Positions 3,239-41,565 of a DNA stretch of 64,000 nt are shown piece after piece. The position numbers and the translations under genes were made by a program. This DNA is from Clostridiales bacterium (GTDB taxonomy: Bacteria; Bacillota; Clostridia; Christensenellales; Aristaeellaceae), in NCBI GenBank assembly GCA_015056265.1, contig SVGR01000001.1:228-64227 (forward strand). Direction: 5' to 3'. The notes below the pieces were generated by a model. The model made no database searches. It was not told where the DNA came from and saw only the letters and a list, made by a program, of their open reading frames with translations. Position 1 is the first letter of the stretch. Each line of letters starts with the position of its first letter.

Positions 3239-3278
3239 TGCTGTTTCCTCCTTCTGTCCGCTTTCATCGGGTTGGCCC

Positions 3279-3590
3279 TCAGGCCTCATCCCCCATAATG
3301 AACCGATACACTTTGTTCATTTCCGCCCATTCCTGCTGAAAATCCAGGATCCGCCGACGTCCCGCCTCAGTAATGGCGTAATATTTCCGCAGCCGACTGT
3401 TATGCTCCCGGGAATAGACCGTCAGGCATTCCGCCGCCTCCAGCCGCCGCAACACCGGATACAGGGTGGACTCCGAAACGGAAAGGATGGGTCCCATATC
3501 CTTGATCAGCTGATAACCATAGCTGTCCCCCCGGACCAGCAGTGATAAAATACACACTTCGATAAGTCCTCGCTTGAGCTGTGCATCCAC
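3279..3590 (-). CDS. PadR family transcriptional regulator
   Basis: LKRGLIEVCILSLLVRGDSYGYQLIKDM...STLYPVLRRLEAAECL...RKYYAITEAGRR is a winged-HTH PadR signature. GTG at 3590 sits 8 nt after AGGAGG. The ORF-track start at 3599 overlaps the RBS. Confidence 0.85.
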   Translation of the reverse strand: MDAQLKRGLIEVCILSLLVRGDSYGYQLIKDMGPILSVSESTLYPVLRRLEAAECLTVYSREHNSRLRKYYAITEAGRRRILDFQQEWAEMNKVYRFIMGDEA

Positions 3591-3761
3591 AATGCTCACC
3601 TCCTGGCAATATTATATTTTACATAGTATTATTTGTCAAGCAATATTTTTGAAAATAAATTATATTTGCACACAGAAATAAAAAATGACCGTTATCAGCG
3701 GTCAATTTTTAATATTGCAGGATAAACGACGGTTAAATCATTGCCATGCAGCCGTCGTTGT

Positions 3762-4955: not shown

Positions 4956-4974
4956 GATTGATTTATTCCTTTGC

Positions 4975-6228: not shown

Positions 6229-6315
6229 AAGGGTTCCTCCTATGTTAGCCAAAGACATTTGTGAAAAATCCCGGAAGGCGATCATGCGATGCCTTCCGGG
6301 GCAAATATGCAATCA

Positions 6316-7608
6316 TTATTGCTGCATCTGGGAAAGCAGCTTTTTGGCACTGGAGATGCGTACGCAGAGGCTGAAAATCTCCATGGCGTTGGTCAAATCC
6401 GCAAGGCAGGGATAGGTGGGGGCAATGCGGATATTGGAATCCTGGGGATCCTGGCCATAAGGCCAGGTAGCGCCTGCGGGGGTCATGGTGACGCCCGCTT
6501 TCTTGGCCCGGGCCACAATATCCTTGGCACAGCCGGGCAGGCTGTCAAACATAATGAAATATCCGCCCAGCGGGCAGGTCCAGGTGCCGATTTCCAGCCC
6601 AGCCAGATTTTTTTCCAAAATGGCCTCCACCGTTTCGAACTTAGGGCGGATGATTTCGGCATGCTTTCTCATGTGCTCCACCATACCGTGGATATTCTTG
6701 AAAAAGCGCACATGGCGCAGCTGATTCACCTTGTCGTGGCCGATGGTCTGAATCCTGAGATTGGTGAGGAAATCCACCATGTTGTTGGGGCTGGTGGCAA
6801 TGGCGGCAATACCGCTGCCGGGGAAGGTGATCTTGGAAGTAGACGCAAATTTGTACACCAGATCGGGATTACCCGCCCGTTTGCATTCCGCCAGGATTTC
6901 AATCAGATGATCCTGATGATGATCATAGAGATGATGCATGCCATAAGCATTATCCCAAAAAATGCGGAAATCCGGAGCAGCGGGCTCCAGCCGGGCAAAA
7001 CGGCGCACCGTTTCGTCATCATACGATATCCCCTGGGGATTGGAATACTTGGGCACGCACCAGATCCCCTTGATGGCATCGTCTTCCCGCACCAGATTTT
7101 CCACAATATCCATATCCGGGCCGGTGGCCGTCATGGGCACAGGAATCATCTTAATGCCGAAATACTCGGTGATGGCAAAATGCCGATCGTATCCGGGCAC
7201 CGGGCAGAGAAATTTTACCTCCGGCAGCTTGCACCAGGGGGTATTGCCCATCACGCCGTGATTCCATACCCGGGCAACGGTATCAAACATCACGTTCAGG
7301 GAGGAGTTGCCGTAAATGATGATATCCTTGGGGTTGTTTTCCATCATATCTCCCAGCAGCTCCCGGGCCTCCTCAATACCCGTCAGCTGGCCGTAATTGC
7401 GGCAGTCGGTACCGTCTTCGCAGGTCAAATCGGAGGATGAATCCAATACATCCATCATCCCCATGGAAAGATCCAATTGCTCCTGACAGGGAACGCCCCG
7501 ACTCATGTTCAGCTGCATGCCCAGGGACTGCATCTTCTTATACTGCGCCTTCAGTTCCGTAATCTCAGCGGTCAGTTCTTCCGCCGTCATTTCACGATAA
7601 GGCTTCAT
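6316..7608 (-). CDS. PLP-dependent aminotransferase (class I/II fold)
   Basis: About 430 aa, with a STSKITFPGSGIAAIA Lys-containing motif and a NMSRGVPCQEQLDL N-terminal region typical of this fold. The start is taken at MKPYREM. Confidence 0.7.
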   Translation of the reverse strand: MKPYREMTAEELTAEITELKAQYKKMQSLGMQLNMSRGVPCQEQLDLSMGMMDVLDSSSDLTCEDGTDCRNYGQLTGIEEARELLGDMMENNPKDIIIYGNSSLNVMFDTVARVWNHGVMGNTPWCKLPEVKFLCPVPGYDRHFAITEYFGIKMIPVPMTATGPDMDIVENLVREDDAIKGIWCVPKYSNPQGISYDDETVRRFARLEPAAPDFRIFWDNAYGMHHLYDHHQDHLIEILAECKRAGNPDLVYKFASTSKITFPGSGIAAIATSPNNMVDFLTNLRIQTIGHDKVNQLRHVRFFKNIHGMVEHMRKHAEIIRPKFETVEAILEKNLAGLEIGTWTCPLGGYFIMFDSLPGCAKDIVARAKKAGVTMTPAGATWPYGQDPQDSNIRIAPTYPCLADLTNAMEIFSLCVRISSAKKLLSQMQQ

Positions 7609-7816
7609 GGCAATGTTCCTTTCACAATCCATCCGTTTTCCGCTCTCTTTTTCCGAAAGCAACCCACGGTATGCCCATTATATCAAATTCATGCCCGCCC
7701 TGCAATGAATTATTCGTTCCGGCTTTGTTTTTTTCCATCAATGCACACGCGCTATCCATGAACAACCTGATACAATATGAATTATTACCCACAATTTACT
7801 AAAGGGGAGAATACTT

Positions 7817-8179
7817 ATGTCAACAACCTATGGTTATGCACGCGTGTCAACAAAAGAACAAAATGAAGAACGCCAGATCATTGCGTTCCAACAATTTGGC
7901 ATACCCCAAAATCGTATATATCTGGACAAACAATCCGGAAAAGATTTTTTCCGCCCCCAATACCAGCGGTTGATTAACAAATTACAAAAAGACGATATTC
8001 TCGTAATAAAAAGTATTGATCGTTTGGGGCGCAATTACCATGATATTCTGGAGCAGTGGCGCCTTATCACTCAAGATAAGAAAGCAGATATTCTGGTACT
8101 GGATATGCCATTGCTTGATACACGAAAGGATCGCGATCTGATTGGCTCGTTAATCTCAGACAATAATACCCAATTGTGA
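7817..8179 (+). pseudogene. serine recombinase (resolvase/invertase) truncated after the catalytic domain
   Basis: YGYARVSTKEQNEERQ contains the catalytic Ser motif, followed by IKSIDRLGRN. The ORF ends at 120 aa without the C-terminal HTH. The surrounding DNA is visibly AT-richer. Confidence 0.75.
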
Positions 8180-8348
8180 TAAAATTATATTTGGCACAAT
8201 TTCCCACTAATTTGTGTTGCATCCATATAAATTTGCACCAGTTTTATGCTGAATTGGCAATCGGTTTATTGTGGTGGGAGTGGGTATCATTGTCTAATAT
8301 GTTACCCGTTGGATAATGTGTTGTACTCGGGATCGGAGGGAATCAGAG

Positions 8349-8477
8349 GTGAGTGTTTATTGCTATGAGTGCATGAATGTTTATTTCCTGGGTTATCAGA
8401 CTGATGGCCAGCAGTTGTTCATGGCCCGCATGGAAGCGGCCTTGAATGAGTATAGAAATCAGCAGGAGAAAAAATAA
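8349..8477 (+). CDS. 42-aa micro-ORF (MSVYCYECMNVYFLGYQTDGQQLFMARMEAALNEYRNQQEKK), function unknown
   Basis: GGAGGG (8335-8340) lies 8 nt before GTG 8349, with stop TAA at 8475-8477 and a strong hairpin terminator 20 nt downstream. No homology was recognised. Confidence 0.3.
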   Translation: MSVYCYECMNVYFLGYQTDGQQLFMARMEAALNEYRNQQEKK

Positions 8478-8496
8478 TTCACATTCGAAAATAGTC

Positions 8497-8528
8497 AAAA
8501 GGTGTTTGCATGCACAAACACCTTTTTT
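8497..8528 (+). terminator. rho-independent terminator
   Basis: Stem GGTGTTTG/CAAACACC is flanked by A4 and T6. Confidence 0.6.
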
Positions 8529-8536
8529 GTATATCT

Positions 8537-8567
8537 GAAAAGCCGCCCGGCATAGTGCCGGACGGCT
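8537..8567 (-). terminator. terminator of the isomerase-like gene
   Basis: AGCCGCCCGGCA-tag-TGCCGGACGGCT hairpin, followed by a T4 run on the minus strand. Confidence 0.55.
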
Positions 8568-8653
8568 GATTTTGTATCTGGAGCCAATCCCAATCGAACA
8601 GAGCATCCGACGGGAAGGAAATCCGATAGATTTCCAATAAACGAAGCAAATGA

Positions 8654-10138
8654 TTACGCGAAGGGATTTTCGGTGGGATAGGGCAGGTTCTTGGGCTGGT
8701 TGTAGGCGATATCCTGCACACCCAGGAACTTGAACACTTCGTAGAGATACTTGGCGCAATGTGCGAACGCCACGGCGCCGTGATGGGGATAGCGCTTCTG
8801 CACCAGCACATGGCGATAAAAACGATCCATTTCGGGAATGGCGAAAACGCCGATGCCACCGAAAGAACGGGTGGCCACGGGCAGCACTTCGCCCTGGGCG
8901 ATATAGGAGCGCAGCACGCCCTCAGAATCGCACTGGAGACGGAAGAAGGTAATGGGGCTGGGAGCGATATCGCCTTCCAGAGTGCCGCGGGAGATATCGG
9001 GCTCAGATCCCACAGGCTCCAGCACACGATGCTGGATCAGCTGATACTTGACAGCACGATCGGCGCACATCTTGCAGGCGGGGGTATTGCCGCAGTGGAA
9101 GCCCATGAAGGTTTCGGTGAGGGTGTAATCATGCTTGCCCTTGATATCTTCATCATAGATGTAGCCGGGCACGGAATTGTTGATATCCAGCAGGGTAACA
9201 GCATCGCCGGTGACGCAGGCGCCGATGTATTCGCTCAGGGCGCCGTAAATATCCACTTCGCAGGCAACGGGAATACCACGGGCGGCCAGGCGGCTGTTCA
9301 CATAGCAGGGTTCAAAGCCAAACTGGGAGGGGAAGGCGGGCCAGCACTTATCGGCAAAGACCACATACTTGCGGGATCCCTTGTGTTCTTCCGCCCAATC
9401 CAGCAAGGTCAGTTCAAACTGGGCCATGCGTTCGTTCAGATCGGGATAATACTTGCCTTCGCCCATTTCCTTGGCCATGTCTTCGCAGATGGCGGGGATG
9501 CGGGGATCGTTGGCATGATTCTTATAAGCCACCAGCAGATCCAGCTCGCTGTTTTCTTCAATTTCCACACCCAGCTCATACAGGCCCTTGATGGGAGCGT
9601 TGCAGGCGAAGAAATCCTGGGGACGGGGCCCGAAGGTGATGATCTTGAGGTTCTTCACGCCGATGATAGCCCGGGCAATCGGGATGAAATCGGCGATCTT
9701 ATCAGCCAGTTCATCGGCAGTGCCCACGGGATATTCGGGGATATAGCCGGTCAGATGGCGCATGCCCAGATTGTAGGAGCAGTTCAGCATGCCGCAATAA
9801 GCGTCGCCGCGGCCGTTGATCATATCGCCGTCGCCTTCGGCAGCCGCCACGAACATGCAGGGGCCGTCGAAATACTTGGCGATCAGGGTTTCAGGGGTTT
9901 CAGGACCGAAGTTGCCCAGGAACACTACAGCGGCATTGCACTCATTGGCCTTCAGTTCTTCCACGGCCTTGAGCATGTCCTTTTCATTTTCCACAGTGGT
10001 CTTGATTTCAACAATATTCAGTTCCTTCTGGCCGCACTTGGCAGCGATGGCGCCCCGACGCATCTCGGACAGGGAAATAGGAAAACAGTCACGGGATACG
10101 GCCACCAGGCCCAGCTTAACAACAGGAATGTTGCTCAT
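8654..10138 (-). CDS. L-fucose/L-arabinose isomerase family protein
   Basis: GGAGGTCGTTTCCC precedes ATG at 10138. About 495 aa, with VKLGLVAVSRDCFP...VVFLGNFGPE...GDAYCGMLNCSYNL typical of the FucI-like fold. Confidence 0.65.
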   Translation of the reverse strand: MSNIPVVKLGLVAVSRDCFPISLSEMRRGAIAAKCGQKELNIVEIKTTVENEKDMLKAVEELKANECNAAVVFLGNFGPETPETLIAKYFDGPCMFVAAAEGDGDMINGRGDAYCGMLNCSYNLGMRHLTGYIPEYPVGTADELADKIADFIPIARAIIGVKNLKIITFGPRPQDFFACNAPIKGLYELGVEIEENSELDLLVAYKNHANDPRIPAICEDMAKEMGEGKYYPDLNERMAQFELTLLDWAEEHKGSRKYVVFADKCWPAFPSQFGFEPCYVNSRLAARGIPVACEVDIYGALSEYIGACVTGDAVTLLDINNSVPGYIYDEDIKGKHDYTLTETFMGFHCGNTPACKMCADRAVKYQLIQHRVLEPVGSEPDISRGTLEGDIAPSPITFFRLQCDSEGVLRSYIAQGEVLPVATRSFGGIGVFAIPEMDRFYRHVLVQKRYPHHGAVAFAHCAKYLYEVFKFLGVQDIAYNQPKNLPYPTENPFA

Positions 10139-10340
10139 GGGAAACGACCTCCTCATTCATATCGATACGTGTATTGGGAAAAAAACGTATATATCTATAC
10201 ACGTTTCAATCATAGTGGATTTCCCTGTTTCTGTCAAGTATTTTCTTCTCATAATCTCCCCGGATTGTGCTGTTTTGCCTGCTGATTTCATGCCGGTCGA
10301 TGGCCGGGCAGCACCTTCGATTTTGTTACAATTCACCCCC

Positions 10341-10386
10341 TTGACAAGAAGTGGTAGACAAGTGTATCCTTTCGGTAGACAATTGT
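10341..10386 (+). promoter_or_regulatory. promoter with two BlaI/CopY-type ACAnnTGT boxes
   Basis: TTGACA at 10341-10346. Direct repeat GGTAGACAA occurs at 10353-10361 and 10373-10381. Boxes ACAAGTGT (10358-10365) and ACAATTGT (10378-10385, within the palindrome GACAATTGTC) lie just upstream of the blaI-like gene. Confidence 0.5.
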
Positions 10387-10415
10387 CACCAACCGAATGA
10401 AGGAGGTTATTGGCT

Positions 10416-10787
10416 ATGGCTGTGCAATGCACTGAGGCGGAATGGAAGATCATGGAGGTTTTGTGGGAGGACGCTCCCCGTACTATGCCTGAAATCACCA
10501 AAGCGCTGTTTGAAAAAACAGGCTGGAGCCGCCATACGGTGATCACGCTGCTGAAAAGAATGCAGGAAAAGGGCAGCATCCGGGTGGATGAATCAGGCCC
10601 TGTGAAGAAATACTTTCCCCTGATTTCCCAGGAGGAGGCCAGCAGCCAGGAAACCAAAAAGCTGCTTTCCCACGTATTTTCCGGCAAGGCCTCCCTGCTG
10701 GTGCAGAATCTGGTGGATTCGGGAGAAATCACCCTCAAGGAAATGGAAGAACTGATGGCCCTCATCCGAAAAGAGGGCAAAAAATGA
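10416..10787 (+). CDS. BlaI/MecI/CopY family transcriptional repressor
   Basis: TEAEWKIMEVLWEDAPRTMPEITKAL...WSRHTVITLLKRMQEKG. AGGAGG lies 9 nt before ATG 10416. Confidence 0.85.
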   Translation: MAVQCTEAEWKIMEVLWEDAPRTMPEITKALFEKTGWSRHTVITLLKRMQEKGSIRVDESGPVKKYFPLISQEEASSQETKKLLSHVFSGKASLLVQNLVDSGEITLKEMEELMALIRKEGKK

Positions 10788-10819
10788 TCTGTAACTACCG
10801 AGGATAAGGAGGGCTGTTC

Positions 10820-12424
10820 ATGCGAACTGCAACCATCTATAATTTCCTGCTGGAAGCCAATCTGATGGCCAGCATCGCTATTATACTGATGCTGGCGGTC
10901 CGAAAGCTGCTAAGAAAGCCTTTGGGCTGCGGCGCCATCCGCTTTGGATGGCTGTTGGTGGCCATCCGTCTTCTCTGTCCCCTGACCCTGCCCAATCCCT
11001 TCATTGGCACCATCCGATCCGACTATGTGAATGATCTGGCCATTCGTCCCATCGCCAGCCAGGTGCAGCGGCGGGTGGAGGATGGACTGGGCGATCTGTA
11101 TTGGGCCATGCGGAAGGGCGCAGGCATGGCGGAGGAGAATCCCGTTTCCCAAGCGGTGAGAAGTTCCTATTTGGGCATGGGCAACGGATCCTTTGCCCGA
11201 ACGATGATGATCATCTATCTGATCGGTATGGCGCTGGTAATCGGCTGGTTTATTTTTTCCAATGTGCGCTTCCGCTACCGCCTGAAGGCAGATCGGATTG
11301 AGACGCTGAACGGCGAATTGCTTTCCCACTATCATGCCCTGTGCAAGAAACGGGGAGTAAAACCTCTTCCGGTGTATCTTACCGATCCCCTGCCCAGCGC
11401 CTGCCTGGTGGGCGTATTCCGGCCCTGGATCGCCCTGCCCCTGTCCGCCTCCCCCCAGGATGCCATCCGGGTTCTGGATCACGAAATCTGCCACTACAAG
11501 GGATGGGATCATATCTGGGCGCTGCTGCGGCTCTTCTGCTGCGCCCTTCACTGGTTCAATCCCCTGGTATGGCTGGCGGCCAAATGCAGCCGTACTGACG
11601 GGGAATTGCACTGCGATGAGCGGGTCGCCAAGGATATGAACCTGGAAGAAAAGCAGCAGTATGCCGGCATTCTGGTGCTGGCAGCCGCTAAAAGAAGCGC
11701 CCCGGGGGTACCGGTGCTGGCTACCGGCATGACCATGACGGGCAGGAAACTGAAAAACCGGGTGCAGGGCATTGTATCGGGCAAAAAGCCCCTGAAGGCC
11801 CTGTCTATGGGATTCATGATCCTTGCCTCCATGCTGCTGGTATGCGCCTTTGCCACGGCGGAATACTTCCCCGTTCCCGGCATACCCGCCTTCAGGGAAG
11901 AAATGCTGCCCCCGGTTCAGCCCATCGCCACCCTGGAAGAGGCCATCATCTATGCAAAGCAAATCCCAGATCTGCCCTACATCCAATGGAATGCACAGGG
12001 CGCTGCCTGGACGGCAGATGAATTCCCCGACGCAGGAGAGGCTTTCCGGGTGTGCGCCAGAAAGGAAAACGGCAATTATCTGATTGTGGTATTGCTCAAA
12101 GAAGGAGGCATTCACAGCATCGTCCAGACCAGCCCGATTTCCTGGGCTACTGCAAAGGAGGAAAGGAAGAACGCATCCTGGGAGCCGGAGCTGATCAAAT
12201 TTGCGGCCCAGTATGTCACAGCCGCCAATCCTGCTCTGGACGGAAAGCTGAATATGGAAACCATCACCATCCGCCATATAACGGATACAGAGCATCCCGG
12301 GGCCCTCTTTGCCATGGTGGATATTTCCTACACTGAAAAGGTGAACAATTCCTGGGGCACCATTGTAGTGGTTCAATTGGCGCCGGAACTGAGGATATTC
12401 GAATGCTCCCCCGGCAACGGATAA
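10820..12424 (+). CDS. BlaR1-like M56 family membrane metalloprotease/sensor with non-PBP extracellular domain
   Basis: Has N-terminal TM helices, the HEXXH motif LDHEICHYKGWDH, and LHWFNPLVWLA. The C-terminal ~200 aa show no SxxK/KTG motifs. Confidence 0.8.
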   Translation: MRTATIYNFLLEANLMASIAIILMLAVRKLLRKPLGCGAIRFGWLLVAIRLLCPLTLPNPFIGTIRSDYVNDLAIRPIASQVQRRVEDGLGDLYWAMRKGAGMAEENPVSQAVRSSYLGMGNGSFARTMMIIYLIGMALVIGWFIFSNVRFRYRLKADRIETLNGELLSHYHALCKKRGVKPLPVYLTDPLPSACLVGVFRPWIALPLSASPQDAIRVLDHEICHYKGWDHIWALLRLFCCALHWFNPLVWLAAKCSRTDGELHCDERVAKDMNLEEKQQYAGILVLAAAKRSAPGVPVLATGMTMTGRKLKNRVQGIVSGKKPLKALSMGFMILASMLLVCAFATAEYFPVPGIPAFREEMLPPVQPIATLEEAIIYAKQIPDLPYIQWNAQGAAWTADEFPDAGEAFRVCARKENGNYLIVVLLKEGGIHSIVQTSPISWATAKEERKNASWEPELIKFAAQYVTAANPALDGKLNMETITIRHITDTEHPGALFAMVDISYTEKVNNSWGTIVVVQLAPELRIFECSPGNG

Positions 12425-12437
12425 GGAGGCAATGCAG

Positions 12438-14117
12438 ATGAAAAATGCAATTATCCTTTTGTTGTGCCTGCTTCTTTTGCCAATAGCTGCGCTGGGAGAA
12501 GGGGATGCAGCCGCAGATTTCAGGCAGCTGCTGGTTTCATCCTTTGGCTATACGGAAGAAGAAGCGGCGGATTTTCAGATAGAGCTGACCATCGAAGGCA
12601 ATAAATCCACCGTCCGGGGCTGGCCCAAGGCGCGCCCGGAATGGGTATATACCGATGAGGAAGAAATCATCAGCGATTCCGGGATGAAATCGTATAGAGA
12701 ACTAAGTCCCTTTGAGTCCGGCCTTGGCATCGGCAGAGAAGGCAGCCTGCGCCGTTTCCTGCGGGAGGAAAGGGAGCAGGGCTGGTTCAAAAACTGGGAA
12801 CAAGGGGGCAGGGAGGCCTTCTGGGCCCGGATGGAAAAGACGGACTACATCCAATATCATTTTCTTTCCAAAGAGCATCTGCATCAGATAACCCCCGGCC
12901 AGGCCCTGGATTTCCTCTTTCAGCTGATGATGAACCATCCTGTCCGCTGGACCCCCGCCCTCTGGCAATGGTATGAGGAGGAGCGGGCTGCCCGGGGAAT
13001 CAGTGAAACATCCAATGCCTATACCGCCCTGTATCTGGAAGACGGCGTGTATGCAAGAACCCCCTATGCCCTGCACCTCTTCCGGGAGGAAATCCCCATG
13101 GAATTCCAGGCGGCTTTTTCTCATCCGCAGCTGGAGGACTGGCAATTCCTCAGCGGCGCTGTTTATGAATTTGGAAAATCAGGCTCTGCCACCGGGCTGG
13201 GAGCCTTTGGCAAGGGGGAGGAACGGCTGCTGGTCATGATCAGGCGAAACAACAATGATCCGGCCTGGCGCACCTATCCCGTCGGTATGCCCCATCACCT
13301 GCAGGGAAAGGATATCCTCATTTCCTGCGCCCATGACGCGTCCCTATTCATCGTGGATTTGTCCCAGGGAACAATGAAGGAGCATCTGCTGCTGAGCCCG
13401 GAATCCGTCTCCGATACCATTGCCTATCTGCGCATTGAGGAATACAGCCAAAGCAATACGGAAACAGGGGAAGGCTTTCGGATTTACGAAAATCAATTCG
13501 TCACCTATCAGCCGGGGCAGGAACCGATATATCAAACCCTTCCCGGCTGGGTGCTGGGCTTTGCCAGCGATGAAAGGGATGCGCCTTTGCCCACAACATT
13601 TGAAGAATGCCTTGCCTATGATCTGCCCCTTCCTGAGGGATATCGAGCGGTGGGCGGCGTACATCTGAGAGAAAAAACCTCTTCCCATTCCCGGGATCTG
13701 GGAGAATTCTATACCGGCGCTCTGGTGAAAATGACGGGAACCCTTTCCGGCGATCCCTACCCCTGGTATCAGGTAGAAATCGGCTTTCTGAAAGGGTATA
13801 TGGCCAGCAACTATGCCGATCTTACCCATCGCCCGGGGGGACTCAGGCCCCAGGACTGCACCCCGCTGAAGGTGGCCCAGACCACGAAAAAAACGCCCCT
13901 CCGATGGGGCACAGGGCTGCTGGACAGAAAGAAGCGGGATGTGCAGCCGGGAGAAAGGATGCATCTGCTGGCCATGCTGGGAAATTACTATTATGTATCC
14001 ATTCCCCGCTCCGGCCAGCCCGGCCGATTCATGGATACAGAAGGGGAATACGGCTATATCCATAAAAATGACGTGAAAATCGCCGGCACCGCCCTGCAGC
14101 TGGACTGGGCACAATGA
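12438..14117 (+). CDS. secreted protein with two C-terminal SH3b-like domains
   Basis: Signal peptide MKNAIILLLCLLLLPIAALG. C-terminal YTGALVKMTG...WYQVEIGFLKGYMASNY and GERMHLLAMLGNYYYVSIP...GYIHKNDV resemble bacterial SH3. AGGAGG lies 8 nt before ATG 12438. Confidence 0.6.
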   Translation: MKNAIILLLCLLLLPIAALGEGDAAADFRQLLVSSFGYTEEEAADFQIELTIEGNKSTVRGWPKARPEWVYTDEEEIISDSGMKSYRELSPFESGLGIGREGSLRRFLREEREQGWFKNWEQGGREAFWARMEKTDYIQYHFLSKEHLHQITPGQALDFLFQLMMNHPVRWTPALWQWYEEERAARGISETSNAYTALYLEDGVYARTPYALHLFREEIPMEFQAAFSHPQLEDWQFLSGAVYEFGKSGSATGLGAFGKGEERLLVMIRRNNNDPAWRTYPVGMPHHLQGKDILISCAHDASLFIVDLSQGTMKEHLLLSPESVSDTIAYLRIEEYSQSNTETGEGFRIYENQFVTYQPGQEPIYQTLPGWVLGFASDERDAPLPTTFEECLAYDLPLPEGYRAVGGVHLREKTSSHSRDLGEFYTGALVKMTGTLSGDPYPWYQVEIGFLKGYMASNYADLTHRPGGLRPQDCTPLKVAQTTKKTPLRWGTGLLDRKKRDVQPGERMHLLAMLGNYYYVSIPRSGQPGRFMDTEGEYGYIHKNDVKIAGTALQLDWAQ

Positions 14118-14120
14118 CAA

Positions 14121-14152
14121 AGGCTGCAGCAGAAACACATCTGCTGCAGCCT
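14121..14152. terminator. bidirectional hairpin terminator
   Basis: 12-bp stem AGGCTGCAGCAG/CTGCTGCAGCCT between convergent genes. Confidence 0.6.
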
Positions 14153-14160
14153 TCCTTTAT

Positions 14161-15597
14161 TTATTTGTCCAGGCTTACTTTTTCATTTCTGATGGCGCTT
14201 ACCCATTTTCCGGTACGGTAGCGCAGGAACATACACAGGGCGCGCACCGCCTGATCCATGCACATGCAGATAACCGCTTCCGGCAGCCCCATGCCAAACA
14301 CCCGGATACACAGCACCGCCCCCAGCGCCCGGATCAGCCAGTTACCCCCAGCCGTAATGTAGAAGGGCCAGCGGGTGTCCCCTGCTCCCCGTAGAGCACC
14401 AGCCAGAATCCAGGCAATCACCTGGATGGGCTGCACAAATGCCACAATCTGCAGACATTGCTGGGCTAAAGGGATCACCTCCGGATCCGGGGTGATGATG
14501 CCCACCAGCTGCCGGGCGAATGCATACAGGCAAACGCCCGCCGCCAGCATAATCCCTATCCCGATCATGCAGGTATGCCGGGCATATTTCCGGGCCAGAC
14601 CCGGCTTATTTGCCCCCAGAGACTGGCCCACCAGGGTGGTGGCAGCAGTGGCAAAGGCAAAGGCCGGCATGAAGGAAAGGGATTCCGCCGTGGAATAAAC
14701 AGAATTGGCAGCCACTGCCACGGTTCCCAAAGAAGCAATGGATTTGGTAACCAGGATACCGGACGCAGACATGCAGAACCGTTCCAGCATGGCGGGGATG
14801 GAAAGCTTCACCACCCGGCTGAGCACGGCCTTCTCCGGTCGGAAGGAATCCCGGATAGAAATGCGGGTGGGATCCTTCTTTACAAAAAGCATCACCGCCA
14901 GCGCCGCACCCCCCAACAGCCAGGAAGCACCGGTGGAAAGGGCCGCGCCCTTCACCCCCAGTCCTGCACCGATCATGGGAATTGCCCAATGAATATTCAG
15001 GGCGTCAATATGAATATTCAGGGTGTGATTATCATGGATCAAAAGATAATTCCCGATAATATTCAGGATATTTACCACAATATTGATGCGAAGGGGAGTT
15101 TTGGTATCCCCTCTGCCCCGGAATACGGAGCCCAGCACCATCATTGCCATGGAAAAGATGCGGAAAATTGAAGTAATCAGCAGGTATTCCTGGGCCAGAG
15201 GCAAAAAATCCGCTTCCGCCCCCATCCACTGGGGAATCTGGCGGTACAGGGCCAAAGGCACCAGCGCCAGGGGCAGCCCCACCAGCAGCAACAAAATCAG
15301 CCCATGGCGAATATAATTCTTGGCGGCGTCATAATCCTTGGCCCCCACGGTGCGGGCCACATAGGCCGTAACCCCCACCCCCAGGGCCATCACCACTCCG
15401 TTGATTAAAAACACAAAGGAATTGGAAATGGATACGGCAGCAGTAGCGGTTTTACCCAATCCGCCCACCATTGCGGTATCCGCAAAGGATACCAGCGTGG
15501 ATAGAACCTGTTCCAGGAACAGGGGCCACGCCAGCCACAATATAACCTTTAATGAGGATTGATTTTCATTTGTCAGATCCAGCTTTTTTCGTGCCAT
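14161..15597 (-). CDS. MATE family efflux transporter
   Basis: ILWLAWPLFLEQVLSTLVSFADTAMVGGLG plus 12-TM-like hydrophobicity. The start is taken at MARKKLDL because a promoter-like element lies between the ORF-track start and this ATG. Confidence 0.8.
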   Translation of the reverse strand: MARKKLDLTNENQSSLKVILWLAWPLFLEQVLSTLVSFADTAMVGGLGKTATAAVSISNSFVFLINGVVMALGVGVTAYVARTVGAKDYDAAKNYIRHGLILLLLVGLPLALVPLALYRQIPQWMGAEADFLPLAQEYLLITSIFRIFSMAMMVLGSVFRGRGDTKTPLRINIVVNILNIIGNYLLIHDNHTLNIHIDALNIHWAIPMIGAGLGVKGAALSTGASWLLGGAALAVMLFVKKDPTRISIRDSFRPEKAVLSRVVKLSIPAMLERFCMSASGILVTKSIASLGTVAVAANSVYSTAESLSFMPAFAFATAATTLVGQSLGANKPGLARKYARHTCMIGIGIMLAAGVCLYAFARQLVGIITPDPEVIPLAQQCLQIVAFVQPIQVIAWILAGALRGAGDTRWPFYITAGGNWLIRALGAVLCIRVFGMGLPEAVICMCMDQAVRALCMFLRYRTGKWVSAIRNEKVSLDK

Positions 15598-15631
15598 CAG
15601 ATGCGCCTGCCTTTGTAAATCGATCCCGTTT

Positions 15632-15660
15632 ACCATATCATTTTTTCCATGATCTGTCAA
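15632..15660 (-). promoter_or_regulatory. putative promoter of the MATE gene
   Basis: On the minus strand, TTGACA (15660-15655), a 17-nt spacer and TATGGT (15637-15632). It lies immediately after the upstream operon's terminator. Confidence 0.4.
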
Positions 15661-15661
15661 T

Positions 15662-15697
15662 CAAAAAAGCCCGGCAGGGAAATCTCCTGTCGGGCTT
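15662..15697 (-). terminator. terminator of the GTPase pair operon
   Basis: AAGCCCGACAGG/CCTGCCGGGCTT hairpin followed by T6 on the minus strand. Confidence 0.7.
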
Positions 15698-15708
15698 GAA
15701 GCGATCCT

Positions 15709-16659
15709 TTATTCAAAGATCATGAATTTTTCCTTTGGGGTTTGTCCTGGGCAGCTGTCCATTTCGTCCAGCATGATTTCCACATCCAGGTCCTTACCCA
15801 CCATATGGCAAAGGGCGGTCAATTCCACAAAAGCGCCGGGAGCATAAGGCTTTTTGAACCGGCACACCCAACCCACCGGGGCGATATCATCGGCACAGCA
15901 GGTCATGGCCATGCGGCCGAAGATCATAAAGCCCTTGGGCAGGCCCTTTTCCTTAAAATACTGGCCGGTGAGGCGTACGGTTTTGCCGTCATAGCGATCG
16001 GGATGCTCCAGAGAATCCAGATAGAAGGTGCCCATATGCTCTTCCCGGATATCGATCACCGGCGCCTTCACATCATAAGGCAGATCCTCATCTGCCACCC
16101 CATCCTCCATGGAGCCGTCCAAATTTTCAAACAGCACATTGGCCCGGGGATTGATGGCCTTGATCTGCCGTCGCCAGGCACTTTTATTATGCTGAGGAGC
16201 GCAGCGATTGACCAGAATCATTTCCGATTCCTTCATGGGATCGGTGAGGAACTTGCGCATATTGGCCATGTAATTATCGAAGGTGGTGGCGTCCGCCAGA
16301 TTCACCACCTGCACGATCCGCCAGGCGGGAGGCAGGGGGGTATTGGCCAGCAATTCAATGCCCCAGACGCTGTTGTATTCCACAATCACCCGATCCAGCC
16401 GGTTCTGACTGCTCAGATCACTGAGCCGCTGGGCGGTCAGTTCCTCCGGCTCCTGTAGCTGCACCAGGAAGGAATTGCTCTTTTTCAACAGTTCCGCATC
16501 CAGCTCCACTTCCCCCTCTTCGCAGCTGAGGATCATGGTACGCTGACCGTAGGTGAACCGCTCATTACGCAGCATGTTTTCGATGAGAGAGGTTTTGCCG
16601 CTTTCCAGAAAACCGGTAATCACATAAAGAGCAACAATTTCTTCACGCTTCTGTTTCAT
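15709..16659 (-). CDS. divergent G3E/CobW-like P-loop protein lacking the CxCC motif, with a C-terminal CCxDD domain
   Basis: Walker A GFLESGKT. SCEEGEVE stands where CxCC is expected. The C-terminus reads GKTVRLTGQYF...FGRMAMTCCADDIAPVGWVC. ATG 16659 overlaps the upstream stop (ATATGA). Confidence 0.7.
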   Translation of the reverse strand: MKQKREEIVALYVITGFLESGKTSLIENMLRNERFTYGQRTMILSCEEGEVELDAELLKKSNSFLVQLQEPEELTAQRLSDLSSQNRLDRVIVEYNSVWGIELLANTPLPPAWRIVQVVNLADATTFDNYMANMRKFLTDPMKESEMILVNRCAPQHNKSAWRRQIKAINPRANVLFENLDGSMEDGVADEDLPYDVKAPVIDIREEHMGTFYLDSLEHPDRYDGKTVRLTGQYFKEKGLPKGFMIFGRMAMTCCADDIAPVGWVCRFKKPYAPGAFVELTALCHMVGKDLDVEIMLDEMDSCPGQTPKEKFMIFE

Positions 16660-17903
16660 ATTGCAAACAGCTCCCGAACAGCCTGTTCCTTCAGATGGGC
16701 GCCGATAATGCACAGCCGGCCGGTATAATCCGCAGAGCCGGGACGGATCTGGCTTTCACCGGGCACATAGTCAAACTGGAACCAGCTGCCATCCCCGGAC
16801 TGCAGCACGCCCTTGGCCCGCAGCACATGGCCAAATTTTTCTTCATTTTCCAGCTGATCCAGCATGCCCTGGATTTCCGCCTGCTCATACCGCCGGGCAG
16901 TTTCGGCACCAATGGAAACGAAGACTTCATCAGCATCGTGGCCGTGATGATGATGTCCATGATGATCATGATCGTGGCAGCCGCAGGTGCAGTGTTCATC
17001 ATGTTCGTGATGATGATGCTCGTGGTGCTCATGGCAATCGCAATGCTCTTCATGATCATGGTGATGATGATCATGGTGCTCGTGGCAATCGCAATGTTCT
17101 TCATGATCATGGTGATGATGATCATGGTGCTCATGGCAATCGCAATGTTCTTCATGATCATGGTGATGATGATCATGGTGCTCGTGGCAATCGCAATGCT
17201 CTTCATGATCATGGTGATGATGATCATGATGGCCGTGGCAGCCACAAGTGCAATGCTCATCATGGTGATGATGGTGATGCTCCATTTCCTCCCGGCTGAT
17301 GATTGGCCGGCCAGATTCGATCACTTCCAGCATTGCGTCGGAGGAAAGATCGTCCCAGGGGGTGGTAATGATCCGCACGCCGGGATGGCACTGCAGCATC
17401 AGCTGCCGGGCAGCCTCCACCTGGGCGGCGTCCATCAGCTGGGTGCGGCTGAAAATCACGGTATCAGCGGTTTTCACCTGATCCTGATAGAACTCCCCAA
17501 AGGCGCGCATGTGCATCTTGCACTTCTTGGCGTCAACCACCGTGGCGCAGCCGGAAACGGCAAGATCGGCATGCCGTTCCTTGGCCTTTTCCACTGCGGC
17601 CACAATTTCGCTCAGCTTGCCCACGCCGGAGGGCTCCACCAGCAGCCGGTCAGGGCTGTATTTTTCAATGATTTCGTCGATGGCGGCGTGCAAATCGCCC
17701 ACCAGACTGCAGCAGATGCAGCCGTTGCTCAGTTCGGTAACGGTAATGCCGGCATCCTTCATAAAGCTGCCGTCCACGCTCACATCACCGTATTCATTTT
17801 CCAGCAGCACAACCTTTTCATTTTTGATACTACCGGAAAGCAGTTTCTGGATGAGAGTGGTTTTACCCGCGCCCAGGAACCCGGAAATAATGTTAATCTT
17901 CAT
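16656..17903 (-). CDS. COG0523/CobW-family G3E GTPase (metallochaperone-type) with a giant His/Cys-rich insert
   Basis: Contains GFLGAGKTTLIQKLL (P-loop), NGCICCSL (CxCC) and a CobW_C-like end (VLRAKGVL...WFQFDYV). A ~115-aa H/D/E/C insert lies between the two domains. Confidence 0.85.
   Translation of the reverse strand: MKINIISGFLGAGKTTLIQKLLSGSIKNEKVVLLENEYGDVSVDGSFMKDAGITVTELSNGCICCSLVGDLHAAIDEIIEKYSPDRLLVEPSGVGKLSEIVAAVEKAKERHADLAVSGCATVVDAKKCKMHMRAFGEFYQDQVKTADTVIFSRTQLMDAAQVEAARQLMLQCHPGVRIITTPWDDLSSDAMLEVIESGRPIISREEMEHHHHHHDEHCTCGCHGHHDHHHHDHEEHCDCHEHHDHHHHDHEEHCDCHEHHDHHHHDHEEHCDCHEHHDHHHHDHEEHCDCHEHHEHHHHEHDEHCTCGCHDHDHHGHHHHGHDADEVFVSIGAETARRYEQAEIQGMLDQLENEEKFGHVLRAKGVLQSGDGSWFQFDYVPGESQIRPGSADYTGRLCIIGAHLKEQAVRELFAI
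17034..17237 (-). repeat. 4 x 51-bp in-frame tandem repeat encoding DHEEHCDCHEHHDHHHH
   Basis: Units start at 17034, 17085, 17136 and 17187 (plus-strand GCAATCGCAATG(C/T)TCTTCATGATCATGGTGATGATGATCATGGTGCTC(G/A)TG). Degenerate copies flank them across 16938-17283. Confidence 0.9.
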
Positions 17904-18098
17904 TGTATCTCTGCTCCTTCATCAATCCATTGATAAGCAAACACTTCCAATACATATCGGCGCCGGCTGCCCCATCCCCGGGCATTGCGCAAATTCCAGC
18001 ACCTATATTATTATATCACGCCTGTCAAGCATCAAACATTACCTTTCCCATGGTCATTTTCCATTCATTCCCTAAAAAGAACCATTCGTCAGTTTTCG

Positions 18099-18127
18099 TT
18101 GTTCCGCTTTTCCTTCCAAGATATAAT
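18099..18127 (+). promoter_or_regulatory. putative promoter of the toxin-like gene
   Basis: TTGTTC (18099-18104), 17-nt spacer, TATAAT (18122-18127). Confidence 0.4.
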
Positions 18128-18150
18128 GCAAATCGTTGGAGGGATGAATC

Positions 18151-19362
18151 GTGGCAAATGTATTACGCTATGACACCGCTGTTATCGACCAAATCGCTCG
18201 TCAATTGAAAGATTTGGGAAATGAGCTTACTTCCTGTAAAGGAACCGTTGCCGGCATTGCATCCAGCATGACCCGCAAAAGCGGCTCCCAACTGCATTAT
18301 AGCAGCACGAGCCGTCTGAGCATGGCCGGTCTTCGAGTGGGAAATGATTCCATCAAATCCTGTCTGCAGCAATATGCAAATGCGCTGAGCACTTATCAAA
18401 GCTTGGTCGGCAAACTGTCAAACCAGCTGTATCAGCTTTCTCAGAACATTGCCGATACTGAGCACAAGCTTTGCAATGCCATCCAAAAAAACGGGGCAGA
18501 CAGTCCTTTCCATGGCAATAACCATGGCGGCGGCGGAAAATCATTTGGTGATCAATCCTCCGCTGTCACACATGAAATTATTGAGTCCTTGCTGAGCATT
18601 ATTGGTGCTGCAGGTCCGCTGGGGGCGCTGGTTAGTTCCGTGATGGGCATGGGAAACAACGGCTTTGATCTGGAAAGCATTCTGAAATTTGTAGTAAGAG
18701 GCGGGGATGTGGCTATCAAATGGGCCACTGAAGGCTTCGATCTGGTCAATATGCTGGATTTGGCGCCTTATAAAGGTGCAGCTGATGCAGCAATAAAGGG
18801 GTTTGGCAGCCTTGCAAATTGGTTAACCTCCGGCATTACCAGTGCATTTAATAATTGGGAAGAACACGGGGAGCTGAGTGATCGTTTCTTTGTAGAATTC
18901 TTTTCCGAAACAGCAGCTGATGTTGCGCTTGGTACTGCTGCAACGATTGCCGGCGGTGCAATTCTGACAGCTGTAGGAGTTGCCGGAGCACCGGCGCTGG
19001 CCGCTGGCGCAATCGGCGCAGTGATTTACTTTGGTGCAGATTGCCTCTGGAAATATACCATTGGCAATGGGGACAGCATTGCGGAATCCATTGGCAACAC
19101 TGTTGGCAAAGGGTATGAGATGGCAAAGGAAGGCGTCGTTTGGGCAGGTGAAAAGATCGCCCAAGGCGCTGAGATCATCATGGAAGGTGCTTCTAACGTA
19201 GCTGAGGCTGCATTGGACGGCGCACAAAAAGTAGCGCAAGCCGCTGCTGAAGGGCTGAACAATACTGCCGAAGCCATCTGGGAAGGCGCCGCCAAGTTTT
19301 CTAACTGGTTTGGTGAAACGGTACGTGACGGCTGGAATATCTGCGCCCAGTGGGCGTCTTAA
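18151..19362 (+). CDS. toxin-like protein: helical N-terminal domain, Gly linker, glycine-zipper hydrophobic segment, C-terminal 11-mer repeats
   Basis: GGAGGG lies 7 nt before GTG 18151. See findings for the residue-level description. Confidence 0.6.
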   Translation: MANVLRYDTAVIDQIARQLKDLGNELTSCKGTVAGIASSMTRKSGSQLHYSSTSRLSMAGLRVGNDSIKSCLQQYANALSTYQSLVGKLSNQLYQLSQNIADTEHKLCNAIQKNGADSPFHGNNHGGGGKSFGDQSSAVTHEIIESLLSIIGAAGPLGALVSSVMGMGNNGFDLESILKFVVRGGDVAIKWATEGFDLVNMLDLAPYKGAADAAIKGFGSLANWLTSGITSAFNNWEEHGELSDRFFVEFFSETAADVALGTAATIAGGAILTAVGVAGAPALAAGAIGAVIYFGADCLWKYTIGNGDSIAESIGNTVGKGYEMAKEGVVWAGEKIAQGAEIIMEGASNVAEAALDGAQKVAQAAAEGLNNTAEAIWEGAAKFSNWFGETVRDGWNICAQWAS

Positions 19363-19381
19363 TTAAAAGGAGGGTATCATT

Positions 19382-19702
19382 ATGCTGACGCAGGATGTAC
19401 GGAAACTTTTGCCCATTGGATCTGTGGTTCGCTTGGTAGGCGCACAGAAATATCTGATGATCTTTGGCATTCGTCAGACGGACACGAAGGAAAACAGAGA
19501 ATATGACTATATTGCCGTAATGTATCCCGAAGGGAACCTGGGGGAAAACCTTCGTTTTATGTTTGACCATGATGCGATTGAAGAGATTCTCTTTACCGGA
19601 TACGAATCCGTCCAAAGGCAAGCGCTGCTTGATAAACTGCATACTTACTTTGAAAGCCAAAATCAACAAAAAAGAAACAATAACCCCGATAACGTAAAGT
19701 AA
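19382..19702 (+). CDS. DUF4176 domain protein
   Basis: AAGGAGGG lies 7 nt before the ATG. LLPIGSVVRLVGAQKYLMIFG...YDYIAVMYPEG...FMFDHDAIEEILFTGY matches the DUF4176 pattern, including the conserved DY. Confidence 0.75.
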   Translation: MLTQDVRKLLPIGSVVRLVGAQKYLMIFGIRQTDTKENREYDYIAVMYPEGNLGENLRFMFDHDAIEEILFTGYESVQRQALLDKLHTYFESQNQQKRNNNPDNVK

Positions 19703-19826
19703 GCAGTTTTCCTCTGTCAGTCTTTTTCTACGATCATTGAGGACGCCTGTTCAAAATGGCAAATAAGCGTATACCGCATATTTTTTGCTTTTTTCACTTG
19801 AAATCAAAAAATTGTTAAGGAAGATA

Positions 19827-19878
19827 TTGACTTTGGAGAACAAAAGAAATAATATTATATAGGTATTTATATAATATT
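19827..19878 (+). promoter_or_regulatory. promoter overlapped by an 11-bp perfect inverted repeat (candidate operator)
   Basis: TTGACT (19827-19832), 17-nt spacer, TAATAT (19850-19855). Inverted repeat AATATTATATA (19851-19861) / TATATAATATT (19868-19878) has a 6-nt spacer. Confidence 0.5.
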
Positions 19879-19946
19879 ACTTATATAAATGCTTGCATGT
19901 GCGCCGAGAATACACACCGGCTGCGCCACACGAAAGGAGATTCATC

Positions 19947-20465
19947 ATGGATTACAACAACTTCAACAACGACAAGGTGCCCAACTACAATCCCCAGTAC
20001 GCCGCCCCGGCTGCTCCCGCCCTGCCCATGAACTGGCATAAGTTCGTCATCTACTTCGTATTGTTTGCCAATGCCGTTCTGAATGTGATCAATGCAATCC
20101 AGTACTTCACCGGTTCCATATACGGCGGCGAATACGAAAAGCGTATGGTCTATACCGTTTTCAGCGGTCTTCAGACCATTGACGTCCTCATGGGGATTAT
20201 GTGCCTTGCTGTTGCTGTATATGCCCTTCTTACCCGTTTTGCTCTGGCCGGTTACCAGGCCAAGGCCCCCAAAATGATGTCCTCCATGTATCTCATCAAT
20301 GCCGGCATCGCCATTCTGTATTTGCTTCTGGCTTCCGCCTCCACCGGCATCGGCCTTGGCGATCTGATGAATGCCTCCCTGGCCACCAGCCTGGTTGTCT
20401 CCGTGATTATGTTCTTCGCCAACAAAACCTACTACGCCAAGCGCGCCGCCCTGTTTACCAAATAA
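19947..20465 (+). CDS. small polytopic membrane protein (about 4 TM), unknown function
   Basis: AAAGGAG lies 8 nt before ATG 19947. A Pro/Asn/Tyr-rich N-terminus is followed by MNWHKFVIYFVLFANAVLNVI and three further hydrophobic helices. Confidence 0.65.
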   Translation: MDYNNFNNDKVPNYNPQYAAPAAPALPMNWHKFVIYFVLFANAVLNVINAIQYFTGSIYGGEYEKRMVYTVFSGLQTIDVLMGIMCLAVAVYALLTRFALAGYQAKAPKMMSSMYLINAGIAILYLLLASASTGIGLGDLMNASLATSLVVSVIMFFANKTYYAKRAALFTK

Positions 20466-20532
20466 ACCGGGAGAAGAAACAGGCCCTGTTCCGTGCGAAC
20501 CGAACCAGTAAAAACGGACAATAGATAAAGAG

Positions 20533-20568
20533 CCCCCTGATGTAGGATCATAGAACTACGTCAGGGGG
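20533..20568 (+). terminator. hairpin terminator
   Basis: 13-bp stem CCCCCTGATGTAG/CTACGTCAGGGGG followed by TAATTTTAT. Confidence 0.55.
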
Positions 20569-20602
20569 TAATTTTATCGAGCAACGAAAATGCACAGATG
20601 TA

Positions 20603-20734
20603 TCAAAGTATATCGAAGTCATCGAGCAGCTGCGGCGAGAGGGAAAGAGCCGTCAAGAGATAGCTAACACACTTGGTCTGGCGAGGATCCAAATCAAGAA
20701 TCTGAAGCAAGAGAATTTGACAGTGCATCAGTGA
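20603..20734 (+). pseudogene. start-less HTH-domain fragment (recombinase/transposase-like remnant)
   Basis: The frame ending at TGA 20732-20734 reads ...KYIEVIEQLRREGKSRQEIANTLGLARIQIKNLKQENLTVHQ. No ATG/GTG/TTG start occurs before the upstream TAG at 20543. Confidence 0.35.
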
Positions 20735-37698: not shown

Positions 37699-37747
37699 CC
37701 CTCAGGCCCGGCCCTCTCCGATCATGAAGAAAGGGGCATCAGCCGTC

Positions 37748-41540: not shown

Positions 41541-41565
41541 ATCACATCCTGAAGGAGGCACAGCT

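Follow-up and report, generated by a model that had tools for sequence, protein, structure and literature searches.

A candidate type VII secretion effector of an unannotated family and its small DUF4176 partner in a Clostridiales genome

The gene pair and its protein family

The stretch of DNA considered here comprises 64,000 nucleotides of a Clostridiales bacterium (assembly GCA_015056265.1, contig SVGR01000001.1, positions 228 to 64,227 of the forward strand) and is called the window throughout, its first letter being position 1. It carries two adjacent genes, encoding a candidate type VII secretion system (T7SS) effector and a small protein with a DUF4176 domain (Table 1). The effector gene, whose family is designated family X, opens with a GTG codon behind a well-placed GGAGGG ribosome-binding site (RBS). 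This had been read from the letters alone in an earlier note (the original prediction), and NCBI annotates a product of the same 403 residues as 'hypothetical protein' (E7324_00085) on a contig of 88 kb. On the 5' side of the effector gene lies a spacer of 247 nt, followed by a divergent cobW gene.

The pair differs from its surroundings in composition. The G+C content at third codon positions (GC3) is 0.483 in the effector gene and 0.477 in the DUF4176 gene, as compared to 0.59-0.73 in eight flanking genes, and this codon usage points to horizontal transfer. The original prediction had drawn the AT-rich islet one gene wider, including the adjacent gene for a membrane protein with four transmembrane (TM) segments. 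The AT-richness is confined to the effector gene, the DUF4176 gene, and the spacers, and since the GC3 of the 4-TM gene (0.705) is host-like, the low-GC islet consists of two genes and not three. A tblastn search against plasmids and phages returned no match and thus gave no evidence for carriage on known mobile replicons.

No above-threshold match to the 403-aa protein was obtained in Pfam, NCBIfam, PADLOC, or PDB sequence searches, which bears out the earlier suspicion of an undescribed family. The family is real, rare, and unannotated: a HMMER scan of 1.84 billion protein cluster representatives yielded 76 representatives at E≤1e-3, 15 of which reach E≤1e-10. It is known only from metagenomes and metagenome-assembled genomes (MAGs), and all of the ten clusters looked up were metagenomic. 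In a word-indexed protein search the single protein matched only itself, and the family profile added 11 proteins; in a GTDB genome search the single protein found nothing, and an alignment of the window protein with its closest homologues (alignment A3) found one MAG, so that the genome of the window is apparently absent from the GTDB representatives. The family alignment holds 68 members with a median length of ~380 aa (column counts below are given out of 68), among which no convincing match to LXG or any other Pfam family was found. A defence-system reading was dropped, as PADLOC gave sub-threshold ZorA noise only.

The members are built on a common plan in which a variable Gly/Ser linker joins the N-terminal hairpin to amphipathic helices, followed by a conserved block and an uncharged Gly/Ala stretch; further conserved positions are D297, E312, and the C-terminal Trp W401. 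Compared to its four closest homologues (A3), the window protein lacks a segment of ~25 residues (YL.NPST...FGENF) before the conserved block (18820-18912), and its tail is ~45 residues (four 11-mers) longer.

Table 1. Features of the gene pair and its immediate 3' neighbourhood (window coordinates)
Feature	Position	Strand	Basis and remarks
RBS GGAGGG	18138..18143	+	7 nt 5' of the effector GTG start; read off the sequence
Effector gene (family X), 403 aa	18151..19362	+	GTG start; open reading frame (ORF)
Predicted WXG100/EsxA-like helical hairpin, residues 1-116	18151..18498	+	AlphaFold2 (AF2), hhalign, family profile against PDB, Foldseek
Gly-rich linker HGNNHGGGGK, residues 121-130	18511..18540	+	Sequence; variable in length and composition among family members
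Amphipathic helical region, residues 137-254	18559..18912	+	AF2 helices, predicted local distance difference test (pLDDT) 60-77
Predicted helical hairpin (hydrophobic Gly/Ala-zipper) with its turn at A-P281-A, residues 255-296	18913..19038	+	Hydropathy, small-xxx-small runs
Seven 11-residue amphipathic repeats, residues 323-399	19117..19347	+	Periodicity and hydrophobic moment
Small DUF4176 gene, 106 aa	19382..19702	+	Starts 19 nt past the effector stop; RBS AAAGGAGGG upstream
Promoter-like site TTGACT-17-TAATAT and AT-rich palindromes	19827..19888	+	Consensus and palindrome matches only; spacer 35% G+C
172-aa 4-TM membrane protein	19947..20465	+	Four hydrophobic segments; best start ATG 19947, RBS AAAGGAG
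Terminator-like hairpin, 14-bp G+C-rich inner stem, then UAAUUUUAU	20524..20578	+	-32.8 kcal/mol, z -8.9

Domain anatomy of the effector

The first ~115 residues had been expected to be helical. AF2 with the family alignment indeed predicts a helix (residues 9-39), a β-hairpin (49-67), and a second helix (68-116) at a pLDDT of 93-98. From the single sequence the mean pLDDT was 42, and the family alignment raised the confidence for the N-domain only. When a profile of residues 1-118 was compared with 14 WXG100 proteins of related loci in hhalign, the two aligned end to end (96.6% probability, E 5e-10), and a control with the C-terminal part against the same WXG100 profile gave a probability of 0.4%. 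In the PDB, the family profile matches EsxA, and positions 1-92 of the whole-family profile align with residues 1-94 of EsxB at E 3.8e-5, a level that coiled-coil proteins reach similarly. The best structural neighbours of the N-domain in Foldseek are EsxA, EsxB, GBS1074, and PE25 (template modelling score up to 0.78, target-normalised), with EsxA 3zbh as the top match (0.76, at a non-significant E-value of 1.3). The Foldseek E-values are non-significant because the remainder of the AF2 model is poor, and a search with the whole effector model returned no significant match.

Helix 2 ends in a family motif of putative export type, [YFW]xx[TA]E (aromatic residue in 58/68, E or D in 68/68), which aligns with the region of the WXG100 C-terminal motif. 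The WXG turn region (residues 40-67) contains no WXG motif and is predicted to form a β-hairpin instead. The N-domain has no LXG motif either, and PF04740 matches neither the window protein at E≤1 nor any of the 68 members at E≤0.01. With PF06013, the window protein alone gave no match at E≤1. The sole trace of Lap targeting factors (DUF3130/DUF3958, DUF5344/DUF5082) is a TIGR04197 match inside the effector itself at E 0.91; the upstream Lap-type gene pair is absent, and local hidden Markov models (HMMs) detect no WXG100-like ORF elsewhere in the window, nor a second family X or DUF4176 ORF. Judged by profile comparison and structure model, the N-domain is predicted to be an EsxA/WXG100-like hairpin, and its sequence is not that of an LXG domain. 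Of the two targeting types named in the original prediction, the WXG type is retained as an EsxA-like hairpin devoid of the WXG motif and the LXG type is abandoned; the accompanying caution that no canonical LXG or WXG motif could be verified agrees with these results.

The N-domain is followed by the Gly-rich linker, present in the sequence as had been described, with the pLDDT of the AF2 model falling below 50 at residues 124-135. The amphipathic region behind it is closed by the best-conserved motif of the family, which comprises W224 (63/68), N235-[YFW]-x-E238 (N235 in 68/68), R245 (62/68), E249 (67/68), and E253-T254 (E253 in 67/68). The subsequent Gly/Ala segment reaches a Kyte-Doolittle peak of 1.93 and includes seven [GAS]xxx[GAS]xxx[GAS] runs that overlap one another. 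Its P281 is kept in 63/68 members; within the family, the uncharged stretch has a median length of 38 residues. The original prediction had placed here an uncharged segment of ~42 residues with small-xxx-small spacing; position and spacing are right, but the segment holds one Asp (D257), so that only residues 258-296 are uncharged.

The repetitive and amphipathic character claimed for the C-terminal tail was confirmed by its seven 11-residue repeats. These show a lag-11 identity of 0.27, a value that no shuffle out of 5000 reached, and a maximum of the hydrophobic moment at 98 degrees. A periodicity of 98 degrees and 11 residues is the 3-11 helix geometry of lipid-surface-binding repeats. This geometry accounts for a weak Synuclein match in the tail (E 7e-4), which lies below threshold. 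No DNA-level tandem repeat was detected by Tandem Repeats Finder beneath the protein repeats. Colicin (PF01024) matches a single one of the 68 members, at E 0.0017 and again below threshold. As both matches are below threshold, they were read as common composition or periodicity and not as homology.

The DUF4176 partner and C-terminal exchange in relatives

The DUF4176 pattern that had been noticed just 3' of the toxin-like gene was substantiated by a match of the 106-aa ORF to PF13780 (DUF4176) at E 8.9e-23 and by a second match, at E 3.4e-6, to the small DUF4176 crystal structure 9dcs. Its size, its PF13780 match, and its position next to the effector place the protein in the small class (70-130 aa) of DUF4176/Ltc proteins. 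A DUF4176 gene lies directly 3' of the effector gene in 9/9 other family members with readable contigs, and its sequence type covaries with the C-terminal type of the effector. The partners of Gly-zipper effectors are 47-70% identical to that of the window, their effectors being only 23-43% identical, and the partner of an alternative C-terminus (see below) is the most divergent from that of the window, with 43% identity. DUF4176 proteins have been described as toxin-specific chaperones, the small ones of which are linked to membrane-depolarising toxins (PMC12478183), and in S. suis, DUF4176 groups pair one-to-one with C-terminal toxin types (PMC12482557). The covariation found here agrees with the S. 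suis pairing and fits the Ltc chaperone function. By analogy, the small DUF4176 protein is thus a candidate cognate chaperone of the Ltc type. It has been proposed that small DUF4176 proteins shield membrane-inserting helices, what the small ones bind being stated as an open question in the same work (PMC12478183).

The loci of relatives (numbered with the prefix L) connect the pair to T7SS genes. In three lineages (L002, L012, and L014) it sits among WXG100 gene clusters, and these loci also hold genes for PP2C or FHA-domain proteins, a Ser/Thr kinase gene, or both. The loci L002-L005 and L008-L011 encode EssC (FHA and two FtsK_SpoIIIE domains), YukD, three WXG100 proteins, the effector, DUF4176, PP2C, and a Ser/Thr kinase. 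In L012, EssC, five WXG100 genes, and a WXG100-like 99-aa gene directly upstream are followed by the effector, DUF4176, and kinase genes. In L014, the effector and DUF4176 are accompanied by five WXG100 genes and by genes for an FHA protein and a PP2C-like one, with no EssC visible on its 7.9-kb contig. Among the three, L002 and L012 thus show EssC, and L002 alone shows YukD. No EssB (YukC), EsaA, or EssA Pfam family was found within 10 kb on either side of the effector in the L002-type locus, which may represent a clostridial T7SS variant with other membrane components and phospho-regulation. The gene order of this one-species locus (L002-L005 and L008-L011, ~3000-18000 in locus coordinates) starts with a Band_7/double-zinc-ribbon protein before EssC (1498 aa), and continues after the Ser/Thr kinase (624 aa) with a TPR protein, a zinc-ribbon protein, and a YARHG protein.

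Orphan copies like that of the window also exist: L023 adjoins a GH26 gene, and L013 precedes a convergent AraC-type regulator gene. On the L023 contig (MAG SIG366), positions 11557-12100 on the 3' side of DUF4176 translate on the + strand to '...PPKGSLPEGAVAARRLREC...' repeats, the look of which is that of repeated non-coding DNA elements rather than of a gene.

A natural exchange of C-termini was found in L002, L008, and L010, which, with 99% identity in the flanks, belong to one species. The first 91 codons of the effector gene, ending '...ALKYDTAENSILGL', are identical. DNA identity stops after codon 91 and returns only past the DUF4176 gene. The protein P0078 has the Gly-zipper C-terminus of the window's family, whereas in P0083 and P0085 its place is taken by a Gly-rich repeat domain that is unrelated to it and comes with a divergent DUF4176. 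This replacement of C-terminus and DUF4176 as a unit behind an identical N-terminus, that is, a constant N-terminal domain with interchangeable C-terminal domains, is a signature of polymorphic toxins. The alternative C-terminus (L008 10275-11230 and L010 10275-11389) is composed of Gly/Lys/Asn-rich repeats with no Pfam match, and P0085 has an extra internal duplication of 53 residues in this domain.

These loci also bear on the question of what kind of protein the effector is. A housekeeping envelope protein, which the original prediction had named as part of the outcome that would overturn it, was rejected because of the T7SS synteny and the C-terminal swap of the relatives. Another possibility is a non-weapon accessory or structural substrate of the T7SS, for example a membrane-inserting conduit or a surface component with DUF4176 as its assembly chaperone. 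Such a role would suit a pair that lies among WXG100 clusters in three lineages, in two of them with EssC visible nearby, and has no immunity gene conserved with the effector; it would likewise suit loci where EssB, EsaA, and EssA families are missing within 10 kb and unrecognised membrane components must therefore exist. It is difficult to reconcile with orphan copies far from T7SS genes, among glycoside hydrolase or metabolic genes (window, L013, and L023), with a codon usage that points to horizontal transfer, and with the replacement, at the same site in the same species, of the C-terminus by an unrelated domain, a behaviour to be expected of effectors rather than of parts of the machine. 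We therefore regard a structural role as improbable.

Interpretation, neighbouring genes, and known systems

Taken together, we assign a probability of roughly 0.65 to the reading that 18151-19702 is a horizontally acquired two-gene module, consisting of a T7SS-type effector of an unannotated family and its cognate small DUF4176 chaperone. The toxicity of the effector is inferred by analogy. In the proposed mechanism, the EsxA-like hairpin would serve as the export signal. It would pair with itself or a WXG100 partner, and an EssC ATPase, the gene for which would lie elsewhere in the genome, would recognise it. By analogy with Ltc proteins, DUF4176 may bind the conserved amphipathic and hydrophobic C-terminal part in the cytoplasm of the producer and thereby keep the effector soluble, stable, and off the producer's own membrane. 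After export, the 11-residue repeats would attach to the surface of the target membrane, whereupon the Gly/Ala-zipper hairpin could insert and oligomerise to an ion-conducting pore that dissipates the membrane potential. This depolarisation step is modelled on TspA, TelE, EsxX, and YfjB (PMC10434224, PMC12744356, bioRxiv 10.1101/2023.08.02.551746) by analogy and not by sequence homology.

Several observations weigh against this interpretation. A profile of the C-terminal domain found no relative in the PDB (best E 0.26, no colicin matches), and the AF2 model of that domain is of low confidence (pLDDT 35-60). In the window protein the helix 2 motif reads I100-A-D-T-E104, with Ile at the aromatic position. 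There is no T7SS gene in the 64-kb window and no ORF of EssC size. Finally, the swapped segment of L002/L008 includes no immunity gene, since only the C-terminus and DUF4176 change, and across the loci no immunity gene is conserved with the module, the genes 3' of DUF4176 being non-homologous or absent. Elsewhere DUF4176 is followed by a 704-aa protein with four N-terminal TMs (L001), a 190-aa 2-TM protein (L014/L015), PP2C, a kinase, or nothing, and in L002, L012, L013, and L023 no membrane protein comes after it. That no immunity gene moves with the toxin domain is the oddity of the module. The cassette of toxin, chaperone, and immunity gene advanced in the original prediction accordingly loses its third part, and its other two are backed by the T7SS-effector anatomy, the DUF4176 partner, the EssC/YukD/WXG100 synteny, and the C-terminal swap.

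The surroundings of the pair are an ordinary chromosome, with genes for a BlaR1-type M56 peptidase, MatE, two CobW-type GTPases, MFS, PHP, and BNR proteins as well as solute-binding proteins, a RecN-like protein, three GH127 enzymes, GH43, and ProRS. ORF sizes and HMM scans over the 64 kb upheld the earlier statement that neither essC nor esxA is present. A setting of this kind could also be that of a stranded, non-functional remnant in a T7SS-less genome from which nothing is exported, and the Ile in place of the motif's aromatic residue as well as the lack of an upstream WXG100 partner gene, unlike in L002 and L012, point in the same direction. Yet neither ORF is disrupted, a strong ribosome-binding site precedes each of them, and every nearly invariant residue of the family is kept in the window protein. 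An aliphatic residue (Ile or Val) occupies the motif position in 4/5 closest homologues, the window protein counted. Furthermore, a JGI metagenome contig repeats the 403-, 106-, and 172-aa gene calls (identity being established for the 172-aa product only), and a location far from the ess locus is on record for known T7SS toxins, TspA among them (PMC11322744). A remnant is therefore very unlikely.

The original prediction had assigned the 4-TM gene 3' of the module, which is transcribed in the same direction, the role of candidate immunity gene under its own operator-bearing promoter. The ATG start at 19947 matches the NCBI product, annotated as 'hypothetical protein' (E7324_00095), and the four hydrophobic segments, a promoter-like site (19827-19855), and palindromes are all present, the latter two as sequence matches only. 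The palindromes (19847-19888) are nested and AT-rich, have 15-nt arms with 93% complementarity, and overlap the promoter-like -10; they are not conserved upstream of the 4-TM homologues in L020, L021, and L022.

If the three genes formed a toxin, chaperone, and immunity cassette, the 172-aa protein would guard the producer's own membrane. Their arrangement would allow for this: no significant terminator was found in the spacer between the DUF4176 and 4-TM genes, where folding is no better than in shuffles (z -1.2 and -0.55), and the only strong hairpin detected 3' of the module (20524..20578) comes after the 4-TM gene. The three genes co-occur in the same-species metagenome contigs L016 and L018, some relatives have the aforementioned non-homologous membrane proteins 3' of DUF4176 (L001; L014/L015), and membrane immunity genes may occur as toxin-less orphans (ExiCD, PMC12744356). 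The evidence from homologues and composition speaks against such a cassette. The GC3 of the 4-TM gene (0.705) departs from that of the module genes (0.48), and its homologues reside among metabolic or housekeeping genes: one with 54% identity follows a GFO/IDH/MocA oxidoreductase gene and one with 36% identity lies between EF-P and NUDIX genes, neither with an effector or DUF4176 nearby. By tblastn, no 4-TM homologue was found in any locus holding another family X member, and the 4-TM protein (172/190 aa) has no match at E≤1 in Pfam (including DUF443), NCBIfam, or PADLOC. The loci with no membrane protein after DUF4176 and the L002/L008 allele swap, which has no third gene, complete the picture. 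The three-gene cassette is thus unlikely, and the 4-TM gene is probably a chromosomal resident rather than the immunity gene of the module.

Work on the toxins of T7SSb has been almost wholly concerned with Bacilli (Staphylococcus, Streptococcus, and Bacillus) and has centred on LXG proteins. The closest counterparts of the two-gene module in that literature are the Gly-zipper toxins (TspA and EsxX of S. aureus, TelE of S. gallolyticus, and TelD of S. intermedius), which likewise combine an EsxAB-type helical N-domain with a C-terminal Gly-zipper and the genes for which can likewise lie apart from the secretion locus. Glycine-zipper toxins of the T7SS act by depolarising membranes (PMC12744356, PMC10434224), and small DUF4176 genes accompany TspA and TelD (PMC11322744, PMC12478183). 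Unlike these toxins with their LXG domain of ~200 aa, the window protein has a single hairpin of ~115 aa, and the module lacks both Lap1/Lap2 genes and a conserved DUF443 or ExiCD-like immunity gene. The hosts of family X are uncultured Clostridia and not Bacilli. The C-domain profile has no sequence similarity to any PDB chain; TspA, TelE, and TelD are likened to the window protein by description only.

Also similar by description is YfjB of B. subtilis, a non-LXG T7SS toxin with a weakly hydrophobic C-terminal two-helix region of GxxxGxxxG type, the delivery of which requires the WXG100 protein YfjA (bioRxiv 10.1101/2023.08.02.551746). YfjB relies on YfjC, a chaperone of EspG-like type, and on the membrane antitoxin YfjD, whereas the window effector has DUF4176. 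With the DUF4176/Ltc chaperones (PMC12478183; PMC12482557), the window partner has in common its small-class size, its downstream position, and a type that tracks the C-terminus of the effector. Ltc chaperones partner LXG proteins, whereas the effector in the window is non-LXG, and the experimentally dissected Ltc proteins belong to the large class, for which the target is a disordered middle domain; where the small class binds is a hypothesis. The N-domain resembles WXG100 proteins of the EsxA-EsxB kind in its helix-turn-helix hairpin of ~100 residues, at the end of which stands a putative Yxxx[D/E]-like motif, but differs in the missing WXG, the β-hairpin that replaces the turn (in its subclade), and a C-terminal extension of ~290 residues. 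The pore-forming colicin domain (PF01024) has the same general plan of amphipathic helices around a hydrophobic helical hairpin of ~40 residues but no significant sequence match to family X.

On the basis of these comparisons, the module is an unannotated addition to a known kind of system and not a new kind. A bolder and rather doubtful reading is that of a distinct class of T7SS effectors, in which a payload-fused WXG100-like hairpin replaces the LXG-plus-Lap signal and DUF4176 is the sole dedicated partner. If this were true, DUF4176 would be both chaperone and cytoplasmic antitoxin, the exchange unit would be 'C-terminus plus DUF4176' with no membrane immunity gene, and export would proceed via a clostridial T7SS variant with no EssB, EsaA, or EssA family within 10 kb of the effector. 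Either the pore-formers would then be harmless to kin and directed at other species or at gut microbes of eukaryotic type, or protection would follow an undescribed mechanism.

As a two-gene module of the known kind, family X extends the logic of EsxAB-type targeting, membrane-active payload, and C-terminus-specific DUF4176 to uncultured Clostridia, with a shorter targeting hairpin and no linked immunity gene as its particular twist. With ~76 clusters, conserved motifs that can be mutated, and a natural allele swap, the family lends itself to probing what small DUF4176 proteins bind. For genome annotation, a pair of 'hypothetical protein' genes becomes a recognisable effector-chaperone module.

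Some further observations concern the remainder of the window. The start-less frame noted earlier at the border of the islet lies between the 4-TM gene and a convergent MFS gene (20570-20734, + strand, ending at 20734 with ...IEVIEQLRREGKSRQEIANTLGLARIQIKNLKQENLTVHQ*). Its only Pfam match is a weak one to HTH_38 (E 0.0023), its similarity to HTH_38 and HTH_7 being weak overall (E 0.002-0.03 for the two), and it may be the remnant of a transposase or resolvase N-terminus. On the 5' side of the module, the CobW/COG0523-type GTPase gene (16656-17903, - strand) contains an internal tandem repeat rich in His, Asp, Glu, and Cys (HHDHHHHDHEEHCDCHE..., four to five copies), a composition suggestive of a metal-binding insert. 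The end of this gene is overlapped by another CobW-domain gene (15709-16713), which has a DUF1980 domain at its C-terminus. Finally, three consecutive GH127 β-L-arabinofuranosidase paralogues are encoded at 37724-43431 (+ strand), followed by a MatE transporter and, further on, by GH43 and solute-binding genes, which together suggest a region for plant-polysaccharide utilisation.

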